From: an uncultured Candidatus Cloacimonadota bacterium
GTDB lineage: Bacteria > Cloacimonadota > Cloacimonadia > Cloacimonadales > TCS61
Assembly: GCA_964521025.1 (NCBI GenBank)
Contig: CAZFPK010000011.1
Location: forward strand, 16,033-80,032
DNA: 64,000 nucleotides
Direction of reading: 5' to 3'
The translations under genes were made by a program, and so were the position numbers. Every line of letters begins with the position of its first letter. Within the stretch, counting starts at the first letter, position 1. The notes below the pieces were generated by a model. The model saw nothing but the letters and a program-made list of their open reading frames with translations. It had not been told where the DNA came from and searched no databases. This document shows, in pieces, positions 10,279 through 37,887 of the stretch.

Positions 10279-10307
10279 TTGACACCAAATCTGTCATTTT
10301 AAGTTTT
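10279..10307 (+). promoter_or_regulatory. Candidate housekeeping promoter (TTG-N18-TAAGTTTT, Bacteroidota-like -33/-7 layout)
   Basis: ttgacaccaaatctgtcattttaagtttt lies about 20 nt upstream of the RBS gaggagg and ATG 10329. This is a motif match only. Confidence 0.3.
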
Positions 10308-10328
10308 CACACACGAGGAGGTCGTCAG

Positions 10329-13304: not shown

Positions 13305-13334
13305 ATCCTGTAAAAGCAACATTTTAGGAAAATA

Positions 13335-13372
13335 AAAAACAGGTCTTGCAGATCAAGACCTGTTTTTTTATT
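13335..13372. terminator. Bidirectional rho-independent terminator between convergent genes
   Basis: aaaaaacaggtcttgcagatcaagacctgttttttt has a 9-bp stem flanked by an A-run and a T-run. Confidence 0.8.
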
Positions 13373-13410
13373 ATTATTTTATCTTGATTTATCCAATGTA
13401 GTATCGAAGA

Positions 13411-14394: not shown

Positions 14395-14497
14395 AGTAAC
14401 CTCCATTTTTTTTATGTAACAAGAAAAAAAATAAGCTGTTTTTGGTGTCAAGCATTTATTTTTTTTTAATATTTTTTTTATCTTTAACGAAAAATAA

Positions 14498-14520
14498 CGC
14501 ACAAGAAAATCCTTGTGCGT
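14498..14520 (-). terminator. Rho-independent terminator of the 14549..17008 gene
   Basis: The stem is cgcacaag/cttgtgcg (8 bp). On the minus strand it is followed by ttatttttcg. Confidence 0.65.
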
Positions 14521-14548
14521 TACATACTTTCGATAGTTAATTCCTTGA

Positions 14549-19613: not shown

Positions 19614-21758
19614 ATGACGAAAAAAAAAGCAGGTCTTGAGAAAAGGATTTTTTTATCATTTTTTGTTATATCACTGTTACTGGTGCTTTTTTTAACATTT
19701 TTACAATGGATGCTTGCCAGAAATATTATCAAACAGTTTGAAAACGAGAACATACTGAAGTCCTTATCTTCTATCAAATTGGCACAATCCGAATTTAAAG
19801 ATAGCTCTCTAAGCCTTCTAAATCTGATAACAAATGATAAAGAAATTATCAAGAGTATTCTTGACCTTGATTCTCTAAAAATATCCGAAAAAATTAATCC
19901 TTATTTAACAGATCCTAAAGCAGAACATATAGTTATTTATAATAATGAAAATAAGTTGATTTATGGAATTGCCTGGGATTTGATCCAAAACTATGTCAAT
20001 AAAATGTACCAATTATTTTATATTAAAGACTTCGGATCTTATTTAGCAAGTTTTGGTGATAAACTTTACCAAATCTCATATTCTTCCTTTTATGAAGATG
20101 ATGAAAAAGAAAAATTCATTGGAATCGTGATTAATGTTGAATCCATTTCCAGACAATCCTATAATCTGAAACAATTGAATGAGATAATTTTGATCCCTAA
20201 CTCTGAAGAACTTCGAAAAGATTTTTTTCCTGAAAACATTTCTCACCTAAAAGATATGATTTCTGAAAAAATAAATAATATGGTTGAAGATGATGTGAAT
20301 GAATCGATTTTTCGTCTGAATTCGGAAATTGCAACAGGAATATATATTAATTATGACCTAAATAACGAACCATCTGCTTTTTTCATAATTCCCTATAACA
20401 GGAACTTTAATCAATTCGCACAGCAGAGTATATTATTTTTCCTGATTATATTATTGGGAATTATACTTGTCACAATCGTCTTGATTGGTTCCTGGTTCAG
20501 GCAGACAATATTACATCCGATAAAAGAAATTCGTGATAGAATGCAAGAAGTTGCCAAAAATCCTTCAATTATAGAACCTATAGAAATCAGGTATTATGGT
20601 AAAATTGGAGATTTTATTGAGAAATTGGAAAACAGGTATTCGGGAGTTCTCGGAGATATGATCGAAACCTTCAATATGATGAATAGGTCTCTTGCTGAAT
20701 ACAGCAGTTCCCATAAAGGTTATAAATTCCTGGTTGAACATCTGAATTCCGGAGTATTCTGGTTGGATTCGAAATACAAGATAATCTTATGTAATCCCGG
20801 TTTTAGAGAATTACTGGAATTAAAGGAGCAAGATAAAGTTCTTGGAGTTAACTTGTTAGAATTTTTACATTTCAGTCCCCGCATTTTGGAAAAAGCAAAA
20901 GTTGAAGCAATAACGATTTTAAGTGTAAGAGTAAAAATAAAAGAAAAAGTTAAATATTTGATTTTCAATGTCAGACCGGTCGAGGATAAATCCGGGAACA
21001 GGCTGGTCGGAAGCATCTCAGATATTACAAAAGAAGTTACTGAAAAAAAAGCTCGCGAATCTCTGGAAATGGAATTGATAAAAAGCAATAAATTGGCTGA
21101 AATCGGGAGAAGAGTAGAAGGAATTATTCACAATCTGAATTCCCCTCTCAATTCCATCCTGGGTTATGCTCAATTGTTGAAAAAAGAATTTTCAAAACAC
21201 AAAGATCTTGAAAAAATACTGGAATCAGGAAAAATTATTTCTCACTATGTTAAAGTTTTACAAACAAAGATCCAGAAAGATAATGTTTATATGACCCAAC
21301 CAATTGATATCAATGAACTCGTTTCACAGGAATTGGAACTTTGTAATCACAACCTTTTCTTTAAGCATTATGTCATTCTGGATACAAATTTTGACACCGA
21401 ACTTCCCGAGATTTTGGCAGTTTTTGGGGATATTAGTTTATGCGTGGCTAATTTATTAAATAATGCTATCGAATCCCTCAAAGATAGTACTGAAAAACAA
21501 ATTGGAATTCGAACTTATCAAACCAGTGAAATGATAGCAATCGAAATAAAGGATACAGGTTCCGGTATTGAAGAAAAGAATTTGCATAAAATATTCGAAC
21601 CGTATTTCACTACAAAAAAACACAAGGATGCAATCGGTTTCGGATTAGGATTAGCTATCGGAAAAAACATTACTGATAAATATAACGGCAGGATTGAAGT
21701 CAAATCTACTTTAGGACATGGAAGCACATTTACGATATTTCTACCAATCAGTAGCTAA
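19614..21758 (+). CDS. Membrane sensor histidine kinase (PilS-position)
   Basis: Two TM segments flank a ~230-aa extracytoplasmic region, followed by a PAS-like region. The H-box is IHNLNSPLNSILGYAQLL and the HATPase motifs are NNAIESL...DTGSGI...GFGLGLAI. RBS aggag precedes ATG. Confidence 0.8.
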   Translation: MTKKKAGLEKRIFLSFFVISLLLVLFLTFLQWMLARNIIKQFENENILKSLSSIKLAQSEFKDSSLSLLNLITNDKEIIKSILDLDSLKISEKINPYLTDPKAEHIVIYNNENKLIYGIAWDLIQNYVNKMYQLFYIKDFGSYLASFGDKLYQISYSSFYEDDEKEKFIGIVINVESISRQSYNLKQLNEIILIPNSEELRKDFFPENISHLKDMISEKINNMVEDDVNESIFRLNSEIATGIYINYDLNNEPSAFFIIPYNRNFNQFAQQSILFFLIILLGIILVTIVLIGSWFRQTILHPIKEIRDRMQEVAKNPSIIEPIEIRYYGKIGDFIEKLENRYSGVLGDMIETFNMMNRSLAEYSSSHKGYKFLVEHLNSGVFWLDSKYKIILCNPGFRELLELKEQDKVLGVNLLEFLHFSPRILEKAKVEAITILSVRVKIKEKVKYLIFNVRPVEDKSGNRLVGSISDITKEVTEKKARESLEMELIKSNKLAEIGRRVEGIIHNLNSPLNSILGYAQLLKKEFSKHKDLEKILESGKIISHYVKVLQTKIQKDNVYMTQPIDINELVSQELELCNHNLFFKHYVILDTNFDTELPEILAVFGDISLCVANLLNNAIESLKDSTEKQIGIRTYQTSEMIAIEIKDTGSGIEEKNLHKIFEPYFTTKKHKDAIGFGLGLAIGKNITDKYNGRIEVKSTLGHGSTFTIFLPISS

Positions 21759-21897: not shown

Positions 21898-23331
21898 ATG
21901 AGGAAAATAATGAGTAAACAGGAAATTTATTCTGAATATTCAAAAAAAAGAGCAAGAATCCTGATCGTCGATGATGAGCAGGATGCTCTTGATATTTTCA
22001 GCAGACAGCTGAAAGATGATTATGATATCGATATTGCTAATTCGGCAGCTGCTGCTTTAGAAAAACTCAAAAAAAAATCGTATCATATTACGATGACTGA
22101 TGTTGTCATGCCCGATATGGATGGAATTGAACTCATGCAGGAAATTAAAAAAAAATGGCCTCATGTATCGGTTGTTGTTATCAGTGGGAAAGCATCTATA
22201 GAAATGGCTGTCAGGGCAATGAAGTTGGGAGCAGAAGATTTTATTGAAAAACCGGTTGAAGATCTTGAACTTTTAAAATTAATGATCGAGAAAATTCTCA
22301 GATTAAAATGGCAAGCGGAAGAAATCAAAAGATTGCGAAATATTTTAGCTCAGGGATTTGATAGAACTAATATTGTTGGAAATAGTCTTATTATCCAGAA
22401 AATAATGGCAAAAGTTAAACTGATTGCCCCTCTTGATACAACCGTCTTGATTACAGGGGATACAGGTGTTGGAAAAGAACTTTTTGCAGAATTGATCTTC
22501 AAGAACAGCAAAAGGAAAGATAAGAAATTTGTAGCGGTAAACTGTGGTGGAATTCCGGAAAACCTTCTGGAAAGCATGCTTTTCGGTCATAAAAAAGGAG
22601 CATTTACCGATGCTATCAGAGATAAAATAGGATATTTCCAGGAAGCCGATGGTGGAACTCTTTTTCTGGATGAGATCACCGAGACTTCTCCTTCTTTTCA
22701 AATAAAGCTGCTCAGAGTATTGGAAAAAGGCGTTATCAGACAAGTCGGAGGGGATAAAGATATTGAAGTCGATGTCAGGATAATTGCAGCTACAAATAAA
22801 CAGATAAAAGAAGAAGTCGAAGAAAATAATTTTAGAGAAGACCTCTATTATCGTTTAAATATTATTAATCTTAATATCCCACCGTTAAAGGATAGGATCG
22901 AAGATATAAAAATTTTGGCAAATGCTTTTATGAATGAATTTTCACAAAAATATGGAAAACATGATTTGACTTTTTCCGAACCTGTGATGTCAATCCTACT
23001 AGCCAATGAATGGAAAGGTAACGTCCGCGAATTAAAAAATGCTATTGAACACGCTGTTGCTCTTAGTTCTCATACAAAAATAATGCCGGAAGACCTGCCC
23101 GAAAATATTTATGATGTTCAAAATATTGATATAAAAGATCTTTTACAGAATTTTCTCCAGATGCCTTTCAACCTGGCAAAAGAAAGTTTTGAAAAAACAT
23201 ATATCGTAGAATTATTAAGTAAACAAAAAGGTGATGTAAAAAATGTTTCTACTATTTCACAAATTAAAAGACAAAATCTCTATGAAAAATTCAAAAAATA
23301 TGACATCGACCTAAATGAATTCAGAAAATAG
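21898..23331 (+). CDS. pilR: Sigma-54-dependent response regulator (NtrC/PilR family: REC + AAA+ + Fis-type HTH)
   Basis: REC is ILIVDDEQD...MTDVVMPDMDG. Walker A is GDTGVGKE. The sigma-54 contact loop reads GAFTDA (canonical GAFTGA). Also present are GGTLFLDEI and RVIAATN. ATG 21910 (MSKQ) is an alternative start. The symbol is given by position and family only. Confidence 0.8.
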   Translation: MRKIMSKQEIYSEYSKKRARILIVDDEQDALDIFSRQLKDDYDIDIANSAAAALEKLKKKSYHITMTDVVMPDMDGIELMQEIKKKWPHVSVVVISGKASIEMAVRAMKLGAEDFIEKPVEDLELLKLMIEKILRLKWQAEEIKRLRNILAQGFDRTNIVGNSLIIQKIMAKVKLIAPLDTTVLITGDTGVGKELFAELIFKNSKRKDKKFVAVNCGGIPENLLESMLFGHKKGAFTDAIRDKIGYFQEADGGTLFLDEITETSPSFQIKLLRVLEKGVIRQVGGDKDIEVDVRIIAATNKQIKEEVEENNFREDLYYRLNIINLNIPPLKDRIEDIKILANAFMNEFSQKYGKHDLTFSEPVMSILLANEWKGNVRELKNAIEHAVALSSHTKIMPEDLPENIYDVQNIDIKDLLQNFLQMPFNLAKESFEKTYIVELLSKQKGDVKNVSTISQIKRQNLYEKFKKYDIDLNEFRK

Positions 23332-23383: not shown

Positions 23384-23399
23384 TGGTACGATTATTGCA
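23384..23399 (+). promoter_or_regulatory. Sigma-54 (-24/-12) promoter of pilin-like gene 1
   Basis: TGGTACGATTATTGCA matches TGGYACG-N4-TTGCW with exact GG-N10-GC spacing. It lies 41 nt upstream of ATG 23439. Confidence 0.75.
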
Positions 23400-23438: not shown

Positions 23439-23861
23439 ATGGGAACACAGCAAATCCTTTTAATTGTTATTGGTGTCATTGTTGTTGGAGTGTCTGTATC
23501 CGTCGGGATAACAATGTTTAACAATCAGTCGGCAGGTTCTAATCGGCAGGCTGTTATTCAAGACCTAAATACTTTTGCAGGAAATGCTTTAGCATATTAT
23601 AAAGCTCCATCAAGCTTTGGGGGAGGTTCTCGTTCATGGAGCAATATTGATAAATTGGGAATTTGGATCGGTCATAGTTTTAATCCTGATACTGATTCTT
23701 TATCAAATGAAAATGGTGAATTTGGGCTTTCTTATTCAGGGGACGATCTGACAATTGTCGGGATAGGTTTCGAAATTGGAAACGACGGTACAAATAAAGT
23801 TAAAGCAACAATCGTCGCGACAGGCAGTTCGGGAAACCTTGATCTAACGGTAAATAATTAG
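23439..23861 (+). CDS. Pilin-like protein 1 (non-canonical, leaderless type IV pilin-like)
   Basis: The ORF-track frame starts at TTG 23433; ATG 23439 follows AAAGGAG. The N-terminus is MGTQQILLIVIGVIVVGVSVSVGITMFNNQ followed by an amphipathic helix (NRQAVIQDLNTFAGNALAYY). It is a small ~140-aa protein and a paralog of the next two genes. Confidence 0.7.
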   Translation: MGTQQILLIVIGVIVVGVSVSVGITMFNNQSAGSNRQAVIQDLNTFAGNALAYYKAPSSFGGGSRSWSNIDKLGIWIGHSFNPDTDSLSNENGEFGLSYSGDDLTIVGIGFEIGNDGTNKVKATIVATGSSGNLDLTVNN

Positions 23862-24086
23862 TCGAAGCATAATTGAGAATACTGAAACAATTCATATTAT
23901 TTCATATTATGCATGAATGATTACATAATAATTGAACATTTATTCTATAATTAATAGCAAATCTTAAATTACATATACAGCGAAACTCGACAATCCAAAC
24001 TGGAAGAATTCCATAATATAATACTTTTAGAACACTTCTTACCAATTGATTGATGCACTCATAAAAAGTTAAAAAATTCTTATAAC

Positions 24087-24161
24087 TGTCATCTTGAGCG
24101 TGGTCGAAAAATCATTTGTACCAACATTTTATGAGATTCATCGACTACGCTCAGAATGACA
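24087..24161. repeat. Palindromic intergenic repeat element (TGTCATYYTGAGCGTRGTCGA family)
   Basis: tgtcatcttgagcgtggtcgaaaaatc ... gattcatcgactacgctcagaatgaca are imperfect inverted arms. Related copies or half-copies occur at 45039-45156, 53461-53524 and 58890-58925. Confidence 0.65.
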
Positions 24162-24383
24162 TAAAATGACTTTTTACGAAACCATCATAATTATAATTGA
24201 GATTAAATTCTTAAGATGGTAATTTTCTTCAAAATCAGAATAATCTTACGATTAGATCAGGGCTGTCATAAATTTATGATACCAGAATCTAATTTTATTA
24301 TAGTTAAATGAAGATTTTATTATATTTCTAACCTTTTGGAAATCAAATAGATAAGACCTTATTCTGAATTATTGTAAAGTGCT

Positions 24384-24399
24384 TGGTTCATAGATTGCT
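24384..24399 (+). promoter_or_regulatory. Sigma-54 (-24/-12) promoter of pilin-like gene 2
   Basis: TGGTTCATAGATTGCT has GG-N10-GC spacing identical to the consensus. It lies 71 nt upstream of ATG 24469. Confidence 0.7.
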
Positions 24400-24460
24400 T
24401 AATTTACCATTTTGTATCGCAGAGAAGCGATAAAAAAACGAAATCTATTTCTAAAAAAAG

Positions 24461-24893
24461 GAGGAGAAATGGGAACACAACAAATCTTGCTCATTGTATT
24501 GAGCGTAATCATCGTAGGAATCGCAGTTGCTGTTGGTATTTCTATGTTTAACAGTCAGGCAGTTAATGCAAATCGTCAGGCGATCGTATCTGATATGAAC
24601 AATTTCGGAGCTCAGGCAATGGCTTATTACAGAAGTCCGGCAAGTCATGGAGGAGGAGCCGGTACCTGGACTCTCGATGATGTTGGTCAATGGTTAGGTT
24701 ATAATTATGATCCGGATGGTGATTCACTTTATACTGATAACGGAACATTCCACTTATCTGTTAATGGTGATGATTTCGAAATCAATGGTATGGGAACAGA
24801 AACAGGAAATGATGGAACCAATCCGGTTGAAGCAACTGCCACTGTAACCGGTGCGACTGGTGCAATTTCCACTGTGATCGACAACTAAAGAAA
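24461..24893 (+). repeat. 433-bp perfect direct repeat, copy A (pilin gene with RBS)
   Basis: It is identical by eye to 25289..25721. The ORF track gives identical proteins on both strands. The flanks diverge immediately outside. Confidence 0.85.
24469..24888 (+). CDS. Pilin-like protein 2 (139 aa), identical to copy 3
   Basis: The ORF-track frame starts at 24412; ATG 24469 follows AAAGGAGGAG. The N-terminus is MGTQQILLIVLSVIIVGIAVAVGISMFNSQ. Confidence 0.75.
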   Translation: MGTQQILLIVLSVIIVGIAVAVGISMFNSQAVNANRQAIVSDMNNFGAQAMAYYRSPASHGGGAGTWTLDDVGQWLGYNYDPDGDSLYTDNGTFHLSVNGDDFEINGMGTETGNDGTNPVEATATVTGATGAISTVIDN

Positions 24894-24961
24894 CAAGATG
24901 TAAAGTTAAATCGAAATCTGAAGGAGATCATTCTGATTTCCATGGTAGTTGTATTTTTTTG

Positions 24962-25076
24962 AAAGTGTTTTGAAAAGGCGAATTTTAGGGAATTATTAGC
25001 AAGGTTAAAAGTATCGTATATTTAACTTTAATAATTCCTTTTAAAAATTTAACAACTTTTTAAAACACTTTTTTTA
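24962..25076 (+). terminator. Long composite hairpin (~110 nt) followed by a T-run between the two identical pilin copies; possible terminator or attenuator
   Basis: The outer arms are aaagtgttttgaaaa / tttttaaaacacttt, the middle arms ggaattatta / taataattcc and the inner arms gttaaa / tttaac, followed by ttttttat. Confidence 0.45.
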
Positions 25077-25288
25077 TATTATTAAGATTAAATTAATTAG
25101 ATGGTAATTTTCCATATCACAAAATAATTTTACGATTAGTTCCGGACTGTCATAAATTTATTATACCAACATTAAATGTGTCATTAATTTATGACAATTA
25201 TTTTCTAATTTTATTAATTATTAGGACCTAAATTCAGCACTATTAAAAAGATTTTTTCTTATATTTTATCTAACTCTTTGAAAATTAA

Positions 25289-25721
25289 GAGGAGAAATGG
25301 GAACACAACAAATCTTGCTCATTGTATTGAGCGTAATCATCGTAGGAATCGCAGTTGCTGTTGGTATTTCTATGTTTAACAGTCAGGCAGTTAATGCAAA
25401 TCGTCAGGCGATCGTATCTGATATGAACAATTTCGGAGCTCAGGCAATGGCTTATTACAGAAGTCCGGCAAGTCATGGAGGAGGAGCCGGTACCTGGACT
25501 CTCGATGATGTTGGTCAATGGTTAGGTTATAATTATGATCCGGATGGTGATTCACTTTATACTGATAACGGAACATTCCACTTATCTGTTAATGGTGATG
25601 ATTTCGAAATCAATGGTATGGGAACAGAAACAGGAAATGATGGAACCAATCCGGTTGAAGCAACTGCCACTGTAACCGGTGCGACTGGTGCAATTTCCAC
25701 TGTGATCGACAACTAAAGAAA
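25289..25721 (+). repeat. 433-bp perfect direct repeat, copy B
   Basis: See copy A. Confidence 0.85.
25297..25716 (+). CDS. Pilin-like protein 3 (139 aa), identical to copy 2
   Basis: RBS GAGGAG precedes ATG 25297. The protein string is identical to the 24469 gene. Confidence 0.75.
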   Translation: MGTQQILLIVLSVIIVGIAVAVGISMFNSQAVNANRQAIVSDMNNFGAQAMAYYRSPASHGGGAGTWTLDDVGQWLGYNYDPDGDSLYTDNGTFHLSVNGDDFEINGMGTETGNDGTNPVEATATVTGATGAISTVIDN

Positions 25722-25734
25722 ACAAAAATTGAAA

Positions 25735-25768
25735 AAAAGAGGGAGACACAACCGGTCTCCCTTTTTTC
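25735..25768 (+). terminator. Rho-independent terminator after pilin copy 3
   Basis: aaaaaagagggagacacaaccggtctcccttttttc has the stem gggagac/gtctccc followed by a T6 run. Confidence 0.8.
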
Positions 25769-25935
25769 ACTTAAACAAGAGTTCTGAAAACTGAGTTATT
25801 TCTGTAAAATAACTGAATTTCTCTCATCTTTTTCTTTATATTTTTTTAATTATTGAGATTGTTCACAAAAGATTTTATAGAAAGACTCCATGATCATTTT
25901 CAAAAAAATATCAGAACTCTTGAAGTCAGGTAAAT

Positions 25936-27279
25936 ATGTTAAAAGAATTTTTTTATTCCGGTGTATCGCAATTTGGTAAACCCGTGCAAGGGGTTGTTTT
26001 AGCATATAGCAGCTCCAAGGCGAAACAACTCGTTCATCAACTCGAAGAAAAACATAAATTCAAAGTAAAAAATATAATACCCAAAAAAATATTTCTCTAT
26101 ACAATTAAACTTCCTAATGGAAAAAAAATAACTCGCAAACAAACAGCATTTACCAAGAAAGATCTTGCTAATGCCTTAAATAAAATGGGTTACGCAAATG
26201 CAAAGATTCAGCCTGCTTTATTCGATTTCAAGTTCAGACCATCCTTTGCCAGCATTTTGATGTTTGTGAATCTTAGTTCATTCATGCTTAAAGAAAAAAT
26301 GAGTTATGATAAAATTTTAAGGATGTTGGCTGAAGAAGAATCGAATGCAACTTTAAAAGAAACACTGAAAAATATTGAAGGAGATTTGAAAAAAGGGAAA
26401 GAAGGAACAGAAGTTTTCTCCAGATATATCGATGTATTTGGTAAATTTCCTGCTTATATGCTTGGATTAGCAACAAAAAGCGGTAATATGGCAGAAGTTT
26501 ATGATGCTACAGCCAAATTCATGGAACGGGATATGGAATACAGGAAAAGTATTAAACAAGCATTGCTTTCTCCTCTCCTCACAATTATTGCTATGGTTTC
26601 AGCCGTGTTATATTATGTGATATCTATCTTCCCGGCAACTGCGAGATTATTTGTGAAATTTGGCATGGAATTACCACCGTTAACAGATGCAACTTTAAAA
26701 CTAAGCGCTTATTTAGGAGCAAATTGGTGGTGGATGTTTTTGGTAGTAATTATTCCCATGGGAATTATTGCTTTATGGTGGAGAACAAAAAAAGGTCGAG
26801 TTTGGAGAGATCATTTCATTATAAAACTGCCTGTAATCGGTCATCTTTTGCACAAATCCAGCATTGAGATTTTTTTCAGAGTTTTTTCCGCAGTATATGC
26901 AGGTGCGGATAATAACATCGAAACTTTACAGGCATCTGCGGAAGCCTGCCGTAACGGATACATTGAAAAAAAAGTGAAAGAAATAACAATTCCTTCTATG
27001 TTGACCAAAGGTGATACTCTGGTTAGTGCTTTAGCACAAGCAAAAGTCTTTAATAGAACGACTTTAAGCAGACTAAAAACAGGTTCTGAAACAGGGAATG
27101 TTTTATCTGCTGCTAAACAGATATCTTCCTTTTACGAAAAAGAGACAACCTATAAACTTCAAAACATCATTCAATCCATACAGATGTTTGTCGGAGCATT
27201 TATCGCTATTGTTATAACCGCTCTGACAATTGTTTCGGCAGAAATTGCCATGGTCTCACCGACAGGACCTGGTATGTAA
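25936..27279 (+). CDS. pilC: Type IV pilus/T2SS inner-membrane platform protein (GspF/PilC family)
   Basis: 447 aa with two T2SSF-like repeats and three TM segments (LLSPLLTIIAMVSAVLYYVISIF, WWMFLVVIIPMGIIALWW, FVGAFIAIVITALTIV). It lies immediately upstream of the GspE-like ATPase. Confidence 0.75.
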   Translation: MLKEFFYSGVSQFGKPVQGVVLAYSSSKAKQLVHQLEEKHKFKVKNIIPKKIFLYTIKLPNGKKITRKQTAFTKKDLANALNKMGYANAKIQPALFDFKFRPSFASILMFVNLSSFMLKEKMSYDKILRMLAEEESNATLKETLKNIEGDLKKGKEGTEVFSRYIDVFGKFPAYMLGLATKSGNMAEVYDATAKFMERDMEYRKSIKQALLSPLLTIIAMVSAVLYYVISIFPATARLFVKFGMELPPLTDATLKLSAYLGANWWWMFLVVIIPMGIIALWWRTKKGRVWRDHFIIKLPVIGHLLHKSSIEIFFRVFSAVYAGADNNIETLQASAEACRNGYIEKKVKEITIPSMLTKGDTLVSALAQAKVFNRTTLSRLKTGSETGNVLSAAKQISSFYEKETTYKLQNIIQSIQMFVGAFIAIVITALTIVSAEIAMVSPTGPGM

Positions 27280-27293
27280 TTTTCGGAGTTAAA

Positions 27294-29075
27294 GTGTTAA
27301 GAAAATCAAGATTTGGACAATTATTAGTTGAAAGAGGTATTATCGATAAACCAACTCTCGATAAAGCCCTCCTTTATCAGGCTGATGAGGATCCGTCCAA
27401 TCCAAGAATGCTGGGAGATATCCTGGCTTCTGATTTTAAAATAGACCATGATAAAATATTTAGTTTGGTAGCTGACCTTTATGCTTTTAGAACCGTCGAG
27501 ATCGAACCTGAAAAATTTGAAGAAAAAAGAATAACCTATATCAATGATATATTCTCAAAATTCCACGATGAATTCTTAAACAAGTTATTGTTCAAAAAAA
27601 TTGTCCCCTTTAAAGTTCAAAAAAACAGAAAAAACTCTCTCCTGATGTTAGCAGCTAATCCTACCGATAGTCTCGTAGAAGAAATCCCTAAATTTTCCGA
27701 ATTCAAAAAATATGAGGTTGCGTATTGTCGTCTCGAATCGATCCAGGCTCTGATAAATATCATTGCTCCCCAGAAAAACGAATTCCTGGAATTGTTAGAA
27801 GAAGCTGCAGGACAAATGCAGGAAGTTGCTGACATCGATGAGAATGAAATCGATGAATTTGCTTTAGACGAGGAAATCAATAAAAGCCTTCTGGTTAATC
27901 TTTATGAAGGATGCTTGATCGAAGCGGTTCGCAAGGGATCAAGCGATGTTCATATCATCCCATTTCAGCATTCGTGTGTAGATATCATTTTTAGGATAGA
28001 TGGAAATCTGCATCGCTGGCACAGACAGGAAAATACTTCGCCTGAAGCAATGGCAGCCGTGGTCAAAGATAGAGCTTCCGGAATCGATAGATTTGAAAGA
28101 GGTACTGCTCAAGACGGATTTGCACAGAGAGCCGTTGACGGTCATTTGATCAGGTTCAGAATATCTATCATACCGATTGTATCTTCAGAATTTGAAAGAA
28201 GATTTGAGAGTATTGTTATCAGGATCGTCGATGATAGAAATGTTATTACCGATCTGAAAAAACTCGGGTTACAAATACAAGCTGAGAAAGATTTTGTCAA
28301 AGCCATCACTAAATCAAAAGGAATCGTCCTTTTAACCGGACCAACCGGCAGCGGAAAAAGTACAACTTTGATGGCTGCTTTTCACCATACTATCGATCCA
28401 ACCAAAAATGTCCTCACTTGCGAAGATCCGGTTGAATATGTTATTAAAGGCGCCAGACAATTAAAGATCGGTCGTAAGTTCAGTTTCGAGCTGGCGATCA
28501 GGTCTATTCTCAGGCATGATCCGGATATAGTTATGGTCGGTGAAATCAGAGATAAAATTACGGCAGATGTTGCCATTAAATTAGCAAATACCGGTCATCT
28601 GACTTTTTCTACGCTTCACACAAATGATGCTCCCAGTGCTATTTCCCGTTTATTTAAAATTGGAGTCGAACCCTTTCTCCTGGCTTATGCAATGAATCTT
28701 ATCGTAGCTCAGAGATTAGTGAGAAGACTTTGCCCTGAATGTAAAGTTCCTCTTACAAAAGAAAAATACCAATCTGCACTCGATATCGGACTGACCGAAG
28801 ATGATCTGAAATCAAAATTGATTTATGAGGCTGGTCCGGGTTGTAAAAAATGTTTAGATGGTTATAAAGGAAGAGTGAATATTTGCGAAGCTCTCTATTT
28901 TACACCTGAGATCAGAAAAGCAATCGTCGAATCCGGGGAAGAGATCGATGAAGAAAATATCAGGCAAATTGCCGAAAAGCAGGGAATGTTATCCCTGCTG
29001 CAATCCGGTCTGGATAGAGTCAGGAATTCCCTGACTACAATATCGGAAGTTACTTATGCAACTTCGGGAGATTAA
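27294..29075 (+). CDS. pilB: Pilus/T2SS assembly ATPase (GspE/PilB family)
   Basis: GTG start. The N-terminal T2SSE_N-like region is FGQLLVERGIIDKPTLDKAL. Walker A is GPTGSGKSTT, Walker B is DPDIVMVGEIRD and the His box is TGHLTFSTLHTNDA. The tetracysteine motif is CPECK...CKKC. Confidence 0.9.
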   Translation: MLRKSRFGQLLVERGIIDKPTLDKALLYQADEDPSNPRMLGDILASDFKIDHDKIFSLVADLYAFRTVEIEPEKFEEKRITYINDIFSKFHDEFLNKLLFKKIVPFKVQKNRKNSLLMLAANPTDSLVEEIPKFSEFKKYEVAYCRLESIQALINIIAPQKNEFLELLEEAAGQMQEVADIDENEIDEFALDEEINKSLLVNLYEGCLIEAVRKGSSDVHIIPFQHSCVDIIFRIDGNLHRWHRQENTSPEAMAAVVKDRASGIDRFERGTAQDGFAQRAVDGHLIRFRISIIPIVSSEFERRFESIVIRIVDDRNVITDLKKLGLQIQAEKDFVKAITKSKGIVLLTGPTGSGKSTTLMAAFHHTIDPTKNVLTCEDPVEYVIKGARQLKIGRKFSFELAIRSILRHDPDIVMVGEIRDKITADVAIKLANTGHLTFSTLHTNDAPSAISRLFKIGVEPFLLAYAMNLIVAQRLVRRLCPECKVPLTKEKYQSALDIGLTEDDLKSKLIYEAGPGCKKCLDGYKGRVNICEALYFTPEIRKAIVESGEEIDEENIRQIAEKQGMLSLLQSGLDRVRNSLTTISEVTYATSGD

Positions 29076-29078
29076 ATT

Positions 29079-29513
29079 ATGGGCAACGGTCAAATGCTAC
29101 AAATCCTGCTTGCTTTAATACTTTTTTCAACTACTCTAATTACTATTTACAATAGTTTATATGACCAGGCTGAATTTGTTTATAGCGGAATGTATTATAT
29201 CCAGGGACAGAAAATTGTTGATAAATATTTAATGAAGCTCGAGTCTGAACTTATCGGCGATGTTAGTACCTATCTGGATATCTATTCTGATTATCACGAT
29301 TCTACTACAACGATGAATGTAAATACTGTTACTTATAATATTCATATCACAACTGTTTTTTGTGACTCGACAGGAATGATACATTATCCTTATTCTCCAT
29401 ATGAACCATATCAAAAAGTTAATTTGAGCATTTGGTGCAAAGCAACTATTACTGATACTTTATATATTGGAACGGATACAAATCCAATAAGTGAAGTTTT
29501 TAAAGATTTGTAA
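29079..29513 (+). CDS. Minor pilin-like protein
   Basis: The N-terminus is MGNGQMLQILLALILFSTTLITIYNSL (same M-G-x3-[IVM]-L plus hydrophobic helix as the major pilin-like genes). The start is 3 nt after the pilB stop. Confidence 0.6.
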   Translation: MGNGQMLQILLALILFSTTLITIYNSLYDQAEFVYSGMYYIQGQKIVDKYLMKLESELIGDVSTYLDIYSDYHDSTTTMNVNTVTYNIHITTVFCDSTGMIHYPYSPYEPYQKVNLSIWCKATITDTLYIGTDTNPISEVFKDL

Positions 29514-29525
29514 AAAAAGGAAATC

Positions 29526-30125
29526 ATGGGAACAACAGGTGTTTTAGAATCGATAGGTGCTTTGATAATCGGAGGAATATTTCTGGTTATGATATTCAAT
29601 GCTTACTCAAATGTCAATGTTATGAGTCATAATATCAACATGCAGGTAACAGCTAATCAAATATCGGAAAGTGTTTCTTCTCTGCTGGGTTCTGTCTATC
29701 TTTCAAAGGTTGGTGCAGGTGTTGATACTTCGGCTGTTGCTATCACATTAGCTAAAAAAAGGAGATTTAAATTTTTAGGAAAAATCAATCCTGATGATGA
29801 AACCGATAGCGAGATATTCATATATCAATCAGGATATAATGAGACTTACGGTGGTTATGCTTTAAGAGTTAAAATTAACGGGTCTGTGGATGCCGGTCCT
29901 TTCTGGATGTCCACAAAGATTGTTTTCAAATATTATGATGTAAATGAGAATCAATTTACATATTCCGAACTAAATAATGCGGCAAATAGAGATTTAGTTC
30001 GCTCGGTTAGAATCCAGTTCGAATTATTTCAGAATCCTCTGTCATTGGATGGTCAACCAGCCGAGATCAAACAAAAAATGGTATTCTGGAAATATTTCAA
30101 GAATCTATATTTAGGTAGTTCTTAA
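29526..30125 (+). CDS. Minor pilin-like protein
   Basis: The N-terminus is MGTTGVLESIGALIIGGIFLVMIFNAY. An RBS aaggaaa is present and the gene is in the operon. Confidence 0.6.
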   Translation: MGTTGVLESIGALIIGGIFLVMIFNAYSNVNVMSHNINMQVTANQISESVSSLLGSVYLSKVGAGVDTSAVAITLAKKRRFKFLGKINPDDETDSEIFIYQSGYNETYGGYALRVKINGSVDAGPFWMSTKIVFKYYDVNENQFTYSELNNAANRDLVRSVRIQFELFQNPLSLDGQPAEIKQKMVFWKYFKNLYLGSS

Positions 30126-30190
30126 GAAGGTTTTGGTAAGTATGATGTTTGAGGGAGACTTTAATCTGATAAAAATAATAGGAGGTTATC

Positions 30191-31366
30191 ATGAGTAAAA
30201 TCATTGTTTTATCAGTGGTTGTGGCTGCAGCGGTTTTTGCTTCTGTTGCCGTAACAGTCCAGAAAAGAACATCAGAAGTGTCGGATGTGATTTCCGCAGA
30301 TCTCAACGAAATTCAAGGAAGAGCATGTGGAAATCTGGCAATGTCTTATGCTATTAAACAAGTACAGGACGGGTTTATTCCTTTTACTCAAGAGGGTTAT
30401 TTGGAAACATTCCCCAATTTTAATGTGTTAAGCGGTAGTATCGATAGTATCCGGTATACTACCAATGCAGCTCAAGATACGATCCAGATAATTTCTTATG
30501 TGAATACATCTTATATGGGTCAGGATATTTTTCATAAAAGTCAGGCTGGTATTGGTTTACAAGGTGGTTCTCTTCCCGGAATTGTCGCACACTGGTTGAT
30601 GGATGATGATTATTGGAGCGGTACGAATAATGATGTTATCGACGGCACAAATTTTCATCATCATGGAATTGCTTATAGTGGTGCTCATACTGTTGAAGAC
30701 TCACCCGGTTATCCATTCGATAAAGTCGGTAAATTCGATGGTTATAACGACTATGTTGAAATGCCTGTCGGTGTTTGTGACAAATATAATGATGAGATGA
30801 CCGTGACTGTAGGTGTAAAAATCGAAAGACTACCTCTTTTTGATATCGATTGGGGAATCCTGGCTACTGAATACCGGACTACTGATTGGGGTTTTGTTCC
30901 CGTCTGGAGTATGAGAGCTTTTACTTTTAGATTTTTGTGGTGGTATTATGTCAGGTGTTACCTTTTTGTGTTCACTGATAATGGTATAAAATATACCGGA
31001 ATTCAAAAATGCGGAAGTCAAGGTCAAATTTACAAATGGCACAGTGTTGCTGCCATTTATGACGGCAGTACTTCCAATCCTACTATTACTGTAAAAGTCG
31101 CTCATACGGGTTTAAAGGGTACAACTACGATCGGAGAAGGTAATCAATGGACAGGAAGAAATCCTGATAATATTATCTCGGTTGGTGGAAGGGACGGGAT
31201 TATTCCGCCGTTAGCCTGTTTCGACGGTAAATTAGCCGGAGTGGGTATTTGGGATCGAGCTTTGACCGATTTGGAAATCGATGATCTGTTCGATGAATAT
31301 GCTCAAGGGAATACACCTGTTAATGCAGATGGAATTACCATCAATATAGTTTATTGGAGCGAGTAA
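30191..31366 (+). CDS. Pilin-like protein with a C-terminal LamG/concanavalin-like lectin domain (candidate tip adhesin)
   Basis: The N-terminus is MSKIIVLSVVVAAAVFASVAVTV. LamG_3-like motifs are HWLMDDD...GKFDGYNDYVEMP...WHSVAAIYDG...FDGKLAGVGIWDRALTDLEIDDLF. RBS AGGAGG. Confidence 0.65.
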   Translation: MSKIIVLSVVVAAAVFASVAVTVQKRTSEVSDVISADLNEIQGRACGNLAMSYAIKQVQDGFIPFTQEGYLETFPNFNVLSGSIDSIRYTTNAAQDTIQIISYVNTSYMGQDIFHKSQAGIGLQGGSLPGIVAHWLMDDDYWSGTNNDVIDGTNFHHHGIAYSGAHTVEDSPGYPFDKVGKFDGYNDYVEMPVGVCDKYNDEMTVTVGVKIERLPLFDIDWGILATEYRTTDWGFVPVWSMRAFTFRFLWWYYVRCYLFVFTDNGIKYTGIQKCGSQGQIYKWHSVAAIYDGSTSNPTITVKVAHTGLKGTTTIGEGNQWTGRNPDNIISVGGRDGIIPPLACFDGKLAGVGIWDRALTDLEIDDLFDEYAQGNTPVNADGITINIVYWSE

Positions 31367-31522: not shown

Positions 31523-32458
31523 ATGGACAAAAAAATATATGATAATGAAAGAATAATGAAATTCTGGTGGGGAAAAATCCGATGGTTTATGGTTGTCGTA
31601 CTTTTTGCAATTGGAATATTACAAATGCAGAAAAGTCCGCAATCTTTCCCGGCTGTTATTTTTATAGCAGTATTTGCCGGAACACTGGTTTTGAATATTT
31701 TATTCCATCTCAATATCATCAGAATCAACAACCTGATCGCTGCGATCCAAATAACTCTCGATATTGTTTTCTCAACTATTGTCGTTCACTTGACAGGAGG
31801 ATTAGAAAGTTCATTCGTCTGGATCTATCTATTAGGTGTAATAACTGCCAGTTTATCGATCGAAAAAACAGGGGGATTCATCGCTTCATTGATCAGTTCT
31901 CTTTCTCTTCTGGGACTGATCTTGCTTTATAATTATAAATGGCTGATCCCGATGAGTGATGCGGAACATATTGTTGACTATCCTGTACAGACAATTTTTC
32001 TCATTTCTTATACAGGATTGATGATAGCAGTTGCTTTTATGGCTAATTATTTTAGTGACCTGGTCAAAAGACTGAATTCTAATAAATTTATTAACCAGGA
32101 AAAAATAAAGAAACTGAATGAGGACAAATCAAAATTAGAAACCTTTAAAATCGAACAAGAAAGAAAAATTAAAGAAAACAATCAGCTAATTAAGGCAGCT
32201 ACTTCAGTAGCAGTTATCGATCATAAACTGAATAATCACCTGACTATTATTTCATTAGCAGTGAAGAGAATAAAAAGAGCAGGAATGGAATATAAAGATG
32301 AAAAATTAGAAAAATACGGTAATCAAATGACAGATGCACTGAATAAAATCGAAGAAGTTTTGAAAAGTGTGCAAAAGTTGAAACAATTAAAAGTAATCAA
32401 AGAAGCTCGAAAAAAAGAGCAAGGATTATCAGATGAAGAAGAATATTTTAATAGTTGA
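31523..32458 (+). CDS. Polytopic membrane protein with a coiled coil and an H-box-like helix but no ATPase domain
   Basis: About 6 TM segments, then a Lys/Glu-rich coiled coil, then AVIDHKLNNHLTIISLAVKRI (dHp-like). The protein ends 60 aa later. It overlaps the downstream REC gene by 26 nt. Confidence 0.55.
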   Translation: MDKKIYDNERIMKFWWGKIRWFMVVVLFAIGILQMQKSPQSFPAVIFIAVFAGTLVLNILFHLNIIRINNLIAAIQITLDIVFSTIVVHLTGGLESSFVWIYLLGVITASLSIEKTGGFIASLISSLSLLGLILLYNYKWLIPMSDAEHIVDYPVQTIFLISYTGLMIAVAFMANYFSDLVKRLNSNKFINQEKIKKLNEDKSKLETFKIEQERKIKENNQLIKAATSVAVIDHKLNNHLTIISLAVKRIKRAGMEYKDEKLEKYGNQMTDALNKIEEVLKSVQKLKQLKVIKEARKKEQGLSDEEEYFNS

Positions 32459-33287
32459 TGACGAACCAAGTGTAAGAGATATCTGCAAAGATATTCTCGA
32501 AGATGAGGGTTATCGAGTAACTGTTGCAGTCGATGGTCAGGATGCTATCGATAAAATGGATTATTTTGATTTTGATCTTTTTCTGGTAGATTTGTCTATG
32601 CCCAGGATAAGCGGTCTGGAATTAATGAAAGTCATCAAAAATAAACAACCTTTTGCTGTTATTATCATCTTGACCGGATTTGCCAGTGTCCATGGAGCTG
32701 TCAAAGCAATCCATGAAGGAGCTTTCCATTACATCGCCAAACCTACTGATCCTGATGAACTAATCTATGTTGTGAAAAAAGGATTGCAATATTCCGATGA
32801 CCTATATGGTCCCTTGCAAAATGCATTCGAACCCGCAACTGATAATGAATTAAAGCGAAAACCGATTATCCTGAATGGTTTCAACCAGAAAGACAGGGAT
32901 GATTTTATTGAATTAGGAAATTTCCGAAAATATGATCTCGGAATGCATATACCGATCAGTGAAGAAATCGAAGGGCAGATCATTTTAATAGAAGACGGAG
33001 AAGTTTCAGTCTGGCTGAATAATACGATCATCGATTATCTCGAGAAAATGGACTCTTTCGGAGAAGAAACATTGATCTTAAAACAACCTTCTATCACAAA
33101 ATTGAGAGCTGAAACGCTTGTTAAGATCCGGCATTTTAACAGGCAGAAATTACTTGATTTCTTTTCTTATAAAGGAGAAAAACTTTTTAAGAGATTTATG
33201 ATAAATCTGATCAATAATTCATTTTATAAATGGCGAAAATCCGTGCAAAGAATAGTTATGTTAAAACTTTCAACCGGTGAAAAATAA
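32433..33287 (+). CDS. Response regulator receiver fused to a cyclic-nucleotide-binding-like (Crp-type beta-barrel) domain
   Basis: REC is ILIVDDEPSVRD...LFLVDLSMPRISG...IILTGF...KP. The C-terminal GQIILIEDGEVSVWLN...FGEETLIL...AETLVKIRHF resembles cNMP-binding folds. Confidence 0.65.
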   Translation: MKKNILIVDDEPSVRDICKDILEDEGYRVTVAVDGQDAIDKMDYFDFDLFLVDLSMPRISGLELMKVIKNKQPFAVIIILTGFASVHGAVKAIHEGAFHYIAKPTDPDELIYVVKKGLQYSDDLYGPLQNAFEPATDNELKRKPIILNGFNQKDRDDFIELGNFRKYDLGMHIPISEEIEGQIILIEDGEVSVWLNNTIIDYLEKMDSFGEETLILKQPSITKLRAETLVKIRHFNRQKLLDFFSYKGEKLFKRFMINLINNSFYKWRKSVQRIVMLKLSTGEK

Positions 33288-33454: not shown

Positions 33455-34666
33455 ATGAATTTGTCATTTATTGAAGAATTACAGGTAAATCTGTCCGATT
33501 TTATTACAGGTCTGAACCGTTTTCAGCGAATCGATAAATTATTATATGAAAATGTAAACTGGAGGAAAGAAACTCACGAACATTTCAGATACCTGCTTTC
33601 TTATATGAAAAAAAAAAATGCTTCTGATATGGATGTCGGAGGACCAGGAACTAATGGAAAAATCTGGCTAAGGATTTATGGAAACAAAACACCTTGTGAT
33701 GATATGCCCCTTTATCATGATGATGAAATTATTGTTCTTCTGTTAAATGCTTTAAATGAAACACAGAAAAAAATCCTGTTTGAAAAGAAAAATATAGATT
33801 TCTCCGTAGAATTGTTATTCGACGGTGAGGAGCGAGCTAATCGTTTCAGAGGTGATGTATATTTTGACAGAAATTGTATCGCGGCAAATTTTAGAAAAAT
33901 AGACCAAAAAGTTCGAAATATTAAACGGTTAAGTTTCCCGGATAATATTACGAAAAGATTAAATCTTTATTATGAAAAATCCGGTTTATACCTGATAACA
34001 GGTATTTCGGGTTCAGGTAAAAGTGCTACTCTCGACTCTATTGTCGATATGAACAATCGTACCAATAAAGCACATATCGTGATTATCGGGGATCCTATTG
34101 AATTTATTCATGAATCTGTTAAATGTATTATCAGGCATAGAAATGTGGGTGACGATGTCTTGAGTTTTAGAGAGGGAACAATTCAAGCATTAAGACAGGA
34201 TCCGGATATAATTATCGTGGGTGAGATGAGAGATCCTGAAACCATCGATACAGTTATTGAAGTTACCGATAGCGGTCATAAAGTATATACAACATTACAC
34301 ACCAGCTCGGCAATCGACAGTATTCACAGGATAATTGGGGAATTTCAACCAACTGAACAGGACAGGATAAGAATGAGATTGGCTGATGTTCTCAAAGTAT
34401 GTATTTCCCAGAAATTGATTCCGGATAATAAAGGAAAATTGATCCTATCCAAAGAGATTCTTTCTGTGGATAGTTCCGTGAAAGCTGCAATCAGGAATAA
34501 AAATATCGGTGAGATATATCAAATGATGGTAGAAGGAAAAAGAAAGGGAATGATGACTCTTGAACAGGATCTTCTAAATTTATATAAAAAAAATGTGATT
34601 TCCAGAGATACGCTATTAAATTATTCAAATAACAGGAAAATAATGTCTCAAATGCTGCAAATTTAA
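33455..34666 (+). CDS. pilT: Twitching-motility-type retraction ATPase (PilT/PilU family)
   Basis: Walker A is GISGSGKSATL. Also present are DPDIIIVGEMRD, SGHKVYTTLHTSSA and an AIRN-type motif (AAIRNKNIGEIYQMM). It has a ~150-aa N-terminal extension. Confidence 0.85.
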   Translation: MNLSFIEELQVNLSDFITGLNRFQRIDKLLYENVNWRKETHEHFRYLLSYMKKKNASDMDVGGPGTNGKIWLRIYGNKTPCDDMPLYHDDEIIVLLLNALNETQKKILFEKKNIDFSVELLFDGEERANRFRGDVYFDRNCIAANFRKIDQKVRNIKRLSFPDNITKRLNLYYEKSGLYLITGISGSGKSATLDSIVDMNNRTNKAHIVIIGDPIEFIHESVKCIIRHRNVGDDVLSFREGTIQALRQDPDIIIVGEMRDPETIDTVIEVTDSGHKVYTTLHTSSAIDSIHRIIGEFQPTEQDRIRMRLADVLKVCISQKLIPDNKGKLILSKEILSVDSSVKAAIRNKNIGEIYQMMVEGKRKGMMTLEQDLLNLYKKNVISRDTLLNYSNNRKIMSQMLQI

Positions 34667-37020: not shown

Positions 37021-37887
37021 ATGGAATATGCTGTAAGAAATACGATTGTTTTAGCGGTTCTGCTTTTGCTGGTAATTGGCGGTTCATACTGGAGGAACAG
37101 AGGATCAAATGTGATCTTACAGGAAAAAACAACGACTTATAATGATCTCAGAGAGACCGTGGACGGACTAAAAAGAGCAAATCCGGATCTGGTAAATGAA
37201 GATATGATCATTTCTGCATTAGAACGCATGGAAGCATCAGCCAGGAAAAATGTAAAAATCATTCTTAAAGAGGATAATCCAACGATCACTTATAAGTATC
37301 TGGTCGATATTGTAGATCGCTATTGTCCGGGATTGGTCTTTAATTTTGTCGTTGAAAAATCCGGGCAACAGGAAATATTTAACTACAATTCCTACAAGAT
37401 CGATGGAAGTGCCAGTTTCGGTGATTTTTATAGATTTGCCGATCACCTGGAAAATGAAGGTCCTTTACTGACGATCGAATCTATTCTCATCAAGGAAAAA
37501 TATAATGCGGTTTCAGACACTATTCAATTCCATCTCTCGTTCAAATCTTATTTTGAGGATAACGGTATTCCTTATGAAGATTTATCTATGAAAAATCTCA
37601 AGCATCTCAATTTCAATTATAATCCTTTTCGGACCAGAATTCACGGACCTTTGAGATATTCGGGACAGGATGAAGCAATAATCCTGGAAAAATCCGTTAT
37701 GATCGGATTAACTCCTGAAAAAGTTTTTATGCGTGATCATCGTGGTAAATTCAGGATCCTTTTACCGGGTGACAAGATCGTCTTTGGAAATTTAACTTCG
37801 ATTAATTGGGAGGAGCAATATGCATCCTTTACGATTAATAAGACCGGGGTAAACGAAGAAAAAATAATATATTTAAAAAAGGAATAA
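37021..37887 (+). CDS. Single-pass membrane protein in the PilO/PilP position
   Basis: ATG directly abuts the upstream TAA. The TM segment is NTIVLAVLLLLVIGGSYW. The assignment rests on synteny only. Confidence 0.45.
   Translation: MEYAVRNTIVLAVLLLLVIGGSYWRNRGSNVILQEKTTTYNDLRETVDGLKRANPDLVNEDMIISALERMEASARKNVKIILKEDNPTITYKYLVDIVDRYCPGLVFNFVVEKSGQQEIFNYNSYKIDGSASFGDFYRFADHLENEGPLLTIESILIKEKYNAVSDTIQFHLSFKSYFEDNGIPYEDLSMKNLKHLNFNYNPFRTRIHGPLRYSGQDEAIILEKSVMIGLTPEKVFMRDHRGKFRILLPGDKIVFGNLTSINWEEQYASFTINKTGVNEEKIIYLKKE

Follow-up and report, generated by a model that had tools for sequence, protein, structure and literature searches.

Can a type IV pilus be assembled from pilins that are made without a leader? 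The question arises from a 64,000-nucleotide stretch of DNA of an uncultured Candidatus Cloacimonadota bacterium (GenBank assembly GCA_964521025.1, contig CAZFPK010000011.1, positions 16,033 to 80,032 of the forward strand; hereafter the window), in which an earlier note, made from the sequence alone, had singled out six pilin-like proteins that begin with a hydrophobic helix and carry neither a leader nor a glutamate at position 5. A 2023 review describes type IV pilins as 'invariably' carrying a class III signal peptide and as needing a dedicated prepilin peptidase before assembly. We found that the leaderless N-terminus is conserved across the family of major pilins, and that the genes lie in an operon which, judged by its gene content, is best explained as a full type IVa-like, retractile pilus system under sigma-54/two-component control. 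On balance, the subunits of this pilus probably form a pilin family that is not annotated as such and no longer has a class III leader, its pilins being made essentially in mature form with, at most, excision of the initiator methionine.

The six reading frames, with the N-termini quoted in that note, are all present:

23439..23861, + strand, major pilin paralogue 1, 140 amino acids (aa), N-terminus MGTQQILLIVIGVIVVG; open reading frame (ORF) with ribosome-binding site, 53% identity to paralogue 2/3
24469..24888, + strand, major pilin paralogue 2, 139 aa, N-terminus MGTQQILLIVLSVIIVG; protein identical to paralogue 3
25297..25716, + strand, major pilin paralogue 3, 139 aa; the protein with which homologs were sought and the structure was modelled
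29079..29513, + strand, minor pilin m1, 144 aa, N-terminus MGNGQMLQILLALILFS; in orthologues, the helix follows M-x(2-3)-[Q/E]
29526..30125, + strand, minor pilin m2, 199 aa, GspJ/PilW-like by alignments, AlphaFold and Foldseek, N-terminus MGTTGVLESIGALIIGG
30191..31366, + strand, minor pilin m3, 391 aa, N-terminus MSKIIVLSVV; contains a concanavalin/LamG-type domain (Pfam Laminin_G_3, 1.4e-5)

The start codons chosen for these pilin genes are the true ones. A Shine-Dalgarno-like sequence lies 5-9 nt 5' of the ATG in all six genes, and in all six proteins the hydrophobic helix begins one to four residues after it. Genes 1 and 3 have an in-frame stop 2-6 codons 5' of the ATG (in gene 3 a TGA, six codons upstream), which makes a leader impossible for these two. 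For gene 2, a start at the TTG at 24412, which would add a basic 19-residue extension, was rejected: the identical gene 3 has no such option, the GGAGGAG ribosome-binding site would fall within the added segment, and of 97 orthologous genes, 87 offer no other in-frame start of any kind. Across 80 related loci, a Shine-Dalgarno sequence is found within 18 nt in 94 of these 97 major pilin genes. None of the homologs that were checked for it carries a normal G-F-T-L-I-E leader, so the starts stand, and the absence of a leader noted earlier is borne out by the in-frame stops, the Shine-Dalgarno sites and the family-wide conservation.

This conservation is extensive. Upon searching with the 139-aa major pilin, we obtained 794 homologs; among the matches listed with a source name, nearly all are Cloacimonadota proteins annotated "hypothetical protein", and the listed homologs begin with MGTQQILLIV or a near variant, apart from one protein with an N-terminal extension and a few whose start codon was evidently miscalled. 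When 1.84 billion cluster representatives (clusters at 50% identity) were searched with a profile, this yielded 1,828 clusters at E<=1e-3 and 1,075 at E<=1e-10, and nearly all of the listed matches align from residue 1, starting MG[T/Q]QQ. Residues were counted in 262 non-identical major pilin sequences that sample ~1,800 clusters. Here the N-terminus MG[T/Q]QQ[I/L]LLIV is nearly invariant, with Gly2 in 262/262, Gln4 in 255/262 and Gln5 in 260/262 sequences (the other two have Glu5), followed along the helix by Gly17 (244/262), Gly23 (253/262), Phe27 (248/262) and Arg36 (235/262). Positions 1-24 hold no charged residue except the E5 of 2/262 sequences, and residues 6-27 are uncharged and hydrophobic. 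Such conservation of the uncharged MG-QQ N-terminus goes far beyond chance. A scan of one genome per species returned 304 relatives, mostly in Cloacimonadota, with some in Calditrichia (loci L051, L054) and Neomarinimicrobiota (L061), and an MGQQQ subfamily occurs in a Bacteroidota-labelled genome that carries the same operon; the family is thus found in Cloacimonadota, Calditrichia, Marinimicrobia and Bacteroidota-labelled genomes.

By the usual marks of a class III signal peptide, these proteins stand apart. A hydrophilic leader ending in Gly or Ala is lacking, with 1-4 residues before the helix and stops upstream, and the major pilins have Q4-Q5 followed by Ile/Leu instead of a Glu at mature position 5. 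At E<=1, neither PF07963 nor TIGR02532, the models of the class III signal peptide, matched any of the six, in line with the statement of the earlier note that a canonical signal of this class is absent; Pfam and NCBIfam did not recognize any of them as a pilin either, the only match being Laminin_G_3 in m3. Since most family members have no cysteine (159/262 lack it altogether), the usual C-terminal disulphide loop is missing as well. In the head domain, conserved features are P57, an H-G-G-G-G loop, in which G61 and G62 never vary, and a G-x-G-x-E-x-G-N-D motif (residues 57-64 and 107-115).

Structure prediction is in keeping with the view of these proteins as pilin-like. AlphaFold gave paralogue 3 a confidently predicted lollipop topology (predicted local distance difference test, pLDDT, 89.7), in which a helix of residues 4-55 packs on a five-stranded sheet. 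This long N-terminal helix with a beta-sheet head agrees, as does the operon context of PilB, PilC, PilT and secretin genes, with the pilin-like nature proposed in the earlier note, and the helix together with the uncharged residues 6-27 fits its description of about 20 hydrophobic residues followed by an amphipathic, alpha1-like segment. The comparison with pilin folds that it had called for was less decisive: in a Foldseek search of the PDB with the 139-aa model the topology was right and the best match, Acinetobacter baumannii PilA (template modelling, TM, score 0.45, E 0.33), was non-significant; an Acinetobacter pilus also appeared. With hmmsearch, the family profile weakly matched alpha1 of Geobacter PilA among PDB sequences (E 0.17-1.4), placing G17 on G14 and F27 on F24, and hhalign against E. 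coli GspG aligned it with alpha1-C, which provides a register and no significance. The same profile also matches ~90 head residues (34-125) to Legionella RavD (PDB 6njd/6nii, E 0.002) and Pfam DUF2026 (E 0.025), which may be chance. For m2, the model was moderate (pLDDT 70; helix 4-55), and its best Foldseek match, over the full length, was 9a1f_S, 198 residues long and part of an XcpGHIJK pseudopilus model (TM 0.49, probability 0.99, marginal E of 0.026); because of its length, this chain is taken to be XcpW/GspJ.

The minor pilins show which parts of the N-terminus are general. Orthologues of m1 begin MNIQMLLVLL, MGTGQMLLVL, MTYGQIFLIL or MNMMEMVLAL, and those of m2 read M-x-x-[L/I/M/F]-[L/I/F]-[D/E]-x-x-G-A, as in MSSLLDVLGA. 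The m2 of the window has two extra residues (MGTTGVLESIGA), and its E8 aligns with the conserved D/E6 of the orthologues, so that the reported absence of Glu5 holds for the major pilins and fails for this 199-aa protein. The acid takes position +5 when only Met1 is removed. In an hhalign alignment of m2 with E. coli GspJ, which was not significant, sLLDviGA lies on TLLEVMAA, with Met1 opposite Gly(-1) and D6 opposite Glu5; in the same register, the major pilin reads G1-T2-Q3-Q4-I5-L6-L7-I8-V9 against the classical F1-T2-L3-I4-E5-L6-L7-I8-V9. Read in this way, the m2 acid would point to removal of Met1 only. Orthologues of m3 begin M-G-[K/R] and then enter the helix, the window copy having MSK. 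The motif M-[GS]-x3-[IVM]-L that the earlier note had drawn from the six N-termini does occur in all of them, and as a family motif it dissolves: it is a chance of this genome, and the orthologues show four N-terminal types. Because many m1 and m2 orthologues (MNIQMLL.., MSSLLD..) have no Gly or Ala before the helix, cleavage after Gly(-1) is not a common rule, and the cleavage after Gly2 that had been considered for all six falls with it. What these six share is the absence of a leader rather than one motif. By analogy, we infer that m1-m2-m3 (144, 199 and 391 aa) resemble the GspI-GspJ-GspK tip complex, with m3 a possible tip adhesin. In many relatives, m3 is represented by two tandem ~300-aa paralogues (e.g., L008 14780-16632, L012 14705-16542) in place of the single copy of the window; at L081, a locus labelled Bacteroidota, a DUF4900 protein takes the m3 position.

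The surrounding genes, assigned by Pfam and NCBIfam scans of the window proteins, supply the rest of a pilus machine. All pilus operon genes of interest lie on the + strand of the window:

19614..21758, + strand, sensor histidine kinase (PAS, HisKA, HATPase; Pfam), found 5' of the pilin genes in 22 loci; probably acts with the sigma-54 regulator
21898..23331, + strand, PilR-like sigma-54-dependent response regulator (REC, Sigma54_activat, HTH_8; Sigma54_activat E 8.6e-68), directly 5' of the pilin genes, a conserved position
23384..23399, + strand, sigma-54-type promoter TGGTAC-N5-TTGCA, read from the sequence, 40 nt 5' of the first pilin gene
24384..24399, + strand, sigma-54-type promoter TGGTTC-N5-TTGCT, likewise, 5' of the second pilin gene
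25740..25770, no strand assigned, terminator after the major pilin genes, a GC-rich hairpin and then a T-run in the sequence
25936..27279, + strand, PilC/GspF platform protein (Pfam T2SSF 3.2e-24; NCBIfam PilC 2.2e-40)
27294..29075, + strand, PilB/GspE extension ATPase (Pfam T2SSE 3.8e-92; TIGR02538 PilB 1.2e-117)
31523..32458, + strand, PilS-type six-helix membrane protein without an ATPase domain (Pfam 6TM_PilS 2.1e-9), conserved in 45 loci
32433..33287, + strand, response regulator with a cNMP-binding-like domain (Pfam), position conserved
33455..34666, + strand, PilT-family retraction ATPase (TIGR01420 E 5.8e-90, 302 bits, just under the 319-bit cut-off)
34684..37020, + strand, PilM/N/O-like alignment protein, 778 aa, with C-terminal TPR repeats and one membrane helix (NCBIfam Amuc_1101 PilM-like 2e-4, weak; TPR/YbgF), in 31 loci
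37021..37887, + strand, 288-aa single-helix protein, no Pfam match, conserved beside the secretin gene; could be PilO/PilP-like by its position
37890..39071, + strand, secretin, the outer-membrane channel, 393 aa (Pfam Secretin 1.3e-25)

The T2SSE and T2SSF matches exceed the Pfam gathering thresholds, and the TIGR02538 and NCBIfam PilC scores fall under the equivalog cut-offs; the extension ATPase scores higher with the PilB than with the GspE model of NCBIfam. Among the window proteins, no homolog of GspC, GspL, GspM or GspH and no PF08334 pseudopilin was matched by Pfam or NCBIfam. The PilM/N/O-like assignment of the 34684..37020 product is suggested by the weak Amuc_1101 match and the architecture. 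The order regulator, pilin(s), pilC, pilB, m1, m2, m3, PilS-type gene, regulator, pilT, pilMNO-like gene, secretin recurs in ~60 Cloacimonadota loci and is also present in Calditrichia, Neomarinimicrobiota and one Bacteroidota-labelled genome. A sigma-54 promoter, mostly TGGCAC-N5-TTGC[AG], precedes 65 of the 97 orthologous major pilin genes, and promoters and terminator together are arranged as for a pilA that is strongly expressed and controlled by a PilR-type regulator.

No gene for a prepilin peptidase accompanies this machinery. The search space comprised the window and 1.2 Mb around the 80 related loci, within 10 kb of each. With E. coli GspO as the tblastn query, the window gave no match, PilC and the PilS-type protein being its only polytopic membrane ORFs, and the 80 loci gave two chance matches only, both antisense, one within a PilT gene and the other within a kinase gene. 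Besides PilC and the PilS-type protein, the 80 loci contain 35 polytopic membrane ORFs of a few recurrent types; Pfam assigned ten representatives to ABC permeases, GT87 glycosyltransferases and other unrelated families and none to A24, and the GxGD[hydrophobic][K/R] motif occurs in none of the ORFs with >=2 membrane helices, a filter that GspO itself passes. A recurrent 240-250-aa membrane protein just 5' of orphan pilin copies was dropped as a candidate for a new type of peptidase, as it is an ABC transporter permease; the paired 7-9-helix proteins upstream in many loci are GT87 glycosyltransferases. Within the same 1.2 Mb we found no ORF for a classical G-[F/M]-T-L-I-E prepilin. Hence, the A24 peptidase gene is absent near the pilus loci: the earlier note had reported no PilD-like gene in the window, and the flanks of the 80 loci have none either. 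The pilus parts listed in a phylum-wide survey of Cloacimonadota are a pilin, the ATPases for assembly and for retraction, and proteins of the platform and of alignment; a peptidase is not among them. A 133-aa ORF at 48392-48793 (- strand) weakly matches a retropepsin-like aspartic protease (PF13975, E 9e-4); its product is a non-membrane protein, encoded 17 kb from the operon, with no seen link to pilin processing.

How might such pilins be handled? In our proposal, the start of translation would lie one to four residues ahead of the membrane-spanning alpha1 helix, and the initiator methionine would at most be removed by the general methionine aminopeptidase, for whose specificity a glycine at position 2 is the best context. 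The pilins would enter the inner membrane already 'mature', making a dedicated prepilin peptidase and N-methylation unnecessary; PilB and PilC would extract and polymerize them, with an m1-m2-m3 complex priming assembly, and the filament would exit via the secretin and be retracted by PilT. The Gln-Gln of the major pilin would stand near the classical Glu5 site, while the GspJ-like minor pilin would keep its Asp/Glu at +5, counted after Met1. In classical pili, the 2023 review describes a salt bridge between Glu5 and the N-terminal amine; Gln-Gln may replace it by hydrogen-bonding the buried amine. In this scheme we infer Met excision, peptidase independence, the topology in the membrane, what Gln-Gln does, and that filaments form. 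A broader proposal, for which we claim no more than tentative standing, is that several phyla of the Fibrobacteres-Chlorobi-Bacteroidetes (FCB) superphylum run a type IVa-like pilus without any prepilin peptidase, the start codon having moved to the old Gly(-1) such that the initiator Met is the whole 'leader', with general Met excision replacing PilD, N-methylation lost and Glu5 changed to Gln-Gln.

The main rival holds that a prepilin peptidase whose gene lies at another place in the genome processes these proteins in the ordinary way, their leader being the shortest known, Met-Gly, cut after Gly2 to leave a mature Thr-Gln-Gln end. We rate this as unlikely, on evidence that points both ways. 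Gly2 in 262/262 major pilins matches the Gly/Ala(-1) rule that the 2023 review gives for class III signal peptides, and its invariance fits a Gly(-1)-specific peptidase, whereas for Met excision Ala, Ser or Thr would serve as well. The peptidase search covered the loci and 10 kb to either side, not whole genomes, and pilD lies elsewhere in many bacteria; the loci of mannose-sensitive hemagglutinin (MSH) pili have no peptidase gene either and presumably rely on that of another system. All of this weighs against pilins that are made mature, as do the non-significant Foldseek matches of the major pilin, the weak profile alignments to classical pilins, and the lack of a basic leader to set the N-in topology (Lys/Arg occurs at position 3 only in m3). 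Cleavage after Gly2, however, is at odds with minor pilin orthologues such as MNIQMLL, MSSLLD and MNMMEMV, which have no Gly before the helix where classical systems retain Gly(-1) in every subunit, and with the m2 acid, which is at +5 only if Met1 alone is lost; and a peptidase elsewhere has to be reconciled with 1.2 Mb of flanking DNA that contains neither a peptidase nor a classical prepilin. Alternatively, there may be no processing at all, the (formyl-)methionine being kept as residue +1 like the classical Met/Phe, with Gln5 exactly at the Glu5 place. Counted from Met1, Gln5 is found in 260/262 and Glu5 in the remaining two, Glu occupies precursor position 5 in some m1 orthologues (MNMME), and position 2 of several minor pilins is Asn, Gln, His or Ile, next to which Met normally stays; set against this are the Gly2 of the major pilins as a context for Met excision, the m2 acid at precursor position 6 instead of 5, and the LLIV block, which matches the classical L6-V9 only with Met1 uncounted. 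We consider retention of Met improbable.

Rather less probable again is that the operon builds a short periplasmic pseudopilus for secretion, as in type II secretion systems (T2SS), and not a surface pilus, an option that touches function only and leaves the leaderless feature in place. The GspE and GspF models also match PilB and PilC, the best structural match of m2 lies in a T2SS pseudopilus model, the secretin is small at 393 aa, and a divergent secretion system derived from the type IVa pilus (T4aP) is known in Bacteroidetes. A pseudopilus is harder to square with a PilT-family retraction ATPase in the operon, with several conserved, separately transcribed major pilin paralogues that have sigma-54 promoters and a terminator as for pilA, with the preference of the ATPase for the PilB model, and with GspC, GspL and GspM going undetected. 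As to an artefact, in which wrong starts or a chance resemblance make pilins of ordinary small membrane proteins, it was tested and rejected, and we grant it next to no probability: the upstream TTG of gene 2 and the Foldseek scores of the major pilin speak for it, while in-frame stops, Shine-Dalgarno sites, hundreds of homologs aligned from residue 1, the conserved place between the sigma-54 regulator and pilC-pilB, and the confident lollipop model speak against it. Loss of the leader, with at most Met excision, remains our preferred reading.

Further features of the locus concern the pilin genes and their control. Genes 2 and 3 form a tandem duplicate with 99-100% DNA identity at 828-nt spacing, ribosome-binding site included (24453-24888 and 25281-25716), which reflects either a very recent duplication or gene conversion; of the two, only the upstream copy has a sigma-54-type promoter. 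Both intergenic regions 5' of genes 2 and 3 contain two AT-rich elements (36 and 58 nt, 83-86% identical; 24192-24293 and 25077-25177) that could be regulator-binding sites or a duplication remnant. Orphan copies of the major pilin also occur off the operon, each directly 3' of an ABC transporter permease gene (L009 2128-3490, L018 6546-7901, L020 9204-10423, L021 2296-3726, L025 3307-4674). The gene of the PilS-type protein, which has a His-box-like segment, overlaps that of the following response regulator, and the pair is kept in 45 loci (31523-33287). The membrane helices of Pseudomonas PilS sense pilin within the membrane, and by analogy the pair here may monitor the pilin pool. Residues 6-46 at the N-terminus of PilB (27294-27430) weakly resemble an MshE-type cyclic-di-GMP-binding motif, at 22.8 bits against a cut-off of 38.

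Around the operon, an LVIVD-repeat beta-propeller with an fn3 domain (39037-40728) overlaps and directly follows the secretin gene, and adjoins the pilus genes in two loci only. Pairs of GT87-family glycosyltransferases with 7-9 helices lie 5' of the pilus operon in many Cloacimonadota loci (5' of the kinase gene in L003 5264-7675, L006 3252-5680, L008 5301-7705, and L011-L016) and not at the window locus; they could glycosylate pilins or other envelope components. A type IX secretion cargo cluster (Por_Secre_tail) of large proteins occupies 336-17008 and 54870-55589 of the window; among its members are proteins with LamG domains, a TonB-dependent receptor and two streptopain-like Peptidase_C10 proteins that have inhibitor prodomains. 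The left flank of the window holds type IX cargo genes only, and a look-up of the 1642-aa ORF at its right edge gave no match.

Our literature searches found no description of leaderless pilins, of this family, or of a prepilin peptidase in Cloacimonadota, and nothing of relevance that links methionine aminopeptidase to pilins. If there is truly no peptidase at all, the leader and its dedicated peptidase would be dispensable for the assembly of a type IV filament. A natural leaderless family would then show which parts of the signal-peptide rule are mechanistically necessary, as a natural experiment separating the roles of the basic leader (in topology and in blocking premature assembly), the peptidase, N-methylation and Glu5. 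Tools based on the class III motif are unlikely to detect such pilins, which the Pfam and NCBIfam models missed, so that the pilus genes recorded for Cloacimonadota, Calditrichia and Marinimicrobia are probably an incomplete set. For Cloacimonadota of anaerobic digesters, claims of conductive pili and of direct electron transfer have been made, and the pilin genes on which they rest are poorly characterized.

Among known systems, the 'T2SS' of Cytophaga hutchinsonii (CHU_3191-3202) is similarly divergent, T4aP-derived and from the FCB superphylum, with pilins that are hard to recognize; we rejected it as the same system because it has its own A24 peptidase (CHU_3197) and a PF08334 pseudopilin, neither of which is present at our locus. 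MSH pili share a locus without a prepilin peptidase gene, whereas their pilins retain normal class III signal peptides and another system in the same genomes brings a peptidase gene with it. Archaeal type IV pilins and archaellins likewise include major subunits without Glu5, but have a basic leader cut by PibD/FlaK-type A24 peptidases, while the machinery here is bacterial, T4aP-like and equipped with a secretin. The tip complex GspI-GspJ-GspK (XcpV-W-X) of T2SS offers a parallel for the minor subunits, three proteins of rising size encoded directly after the ATPase gene, of which m2 has an LL[D/E] that aligns with the TLLE of E. coli GspJ and an XcpGHIJK chain as its best match, and the largest lacks the acid, as does GspK; our operon differs in having no leaders, a LamG-type domain in m3, PilT, and no detected GspH/C/L/M. 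Also close are the type IVa pili of Pseudomonas and Myxococcus, with which it shares both ATPases, the platform, the secretin, a PilM-like protein, a PilS-type six-helix domain, sigma-54/PilR-type control of the major pilin, and a small pilin of alpha1 helix and beta-sheet head. In contrast to these pili, the pilins here have no hydrophilic leader, no Phe1, Gln-Gln for Glu5, no C-terminal disulphide, a hydrophobic segment about two residues longer and no match to N_methyl/TIGR02532, and no pilD lies beside pilB-pilC. The system would work like a type IVa pilus whose subunits depart from two defining features of pilins, the leader and the match to curated signal-peptide models.

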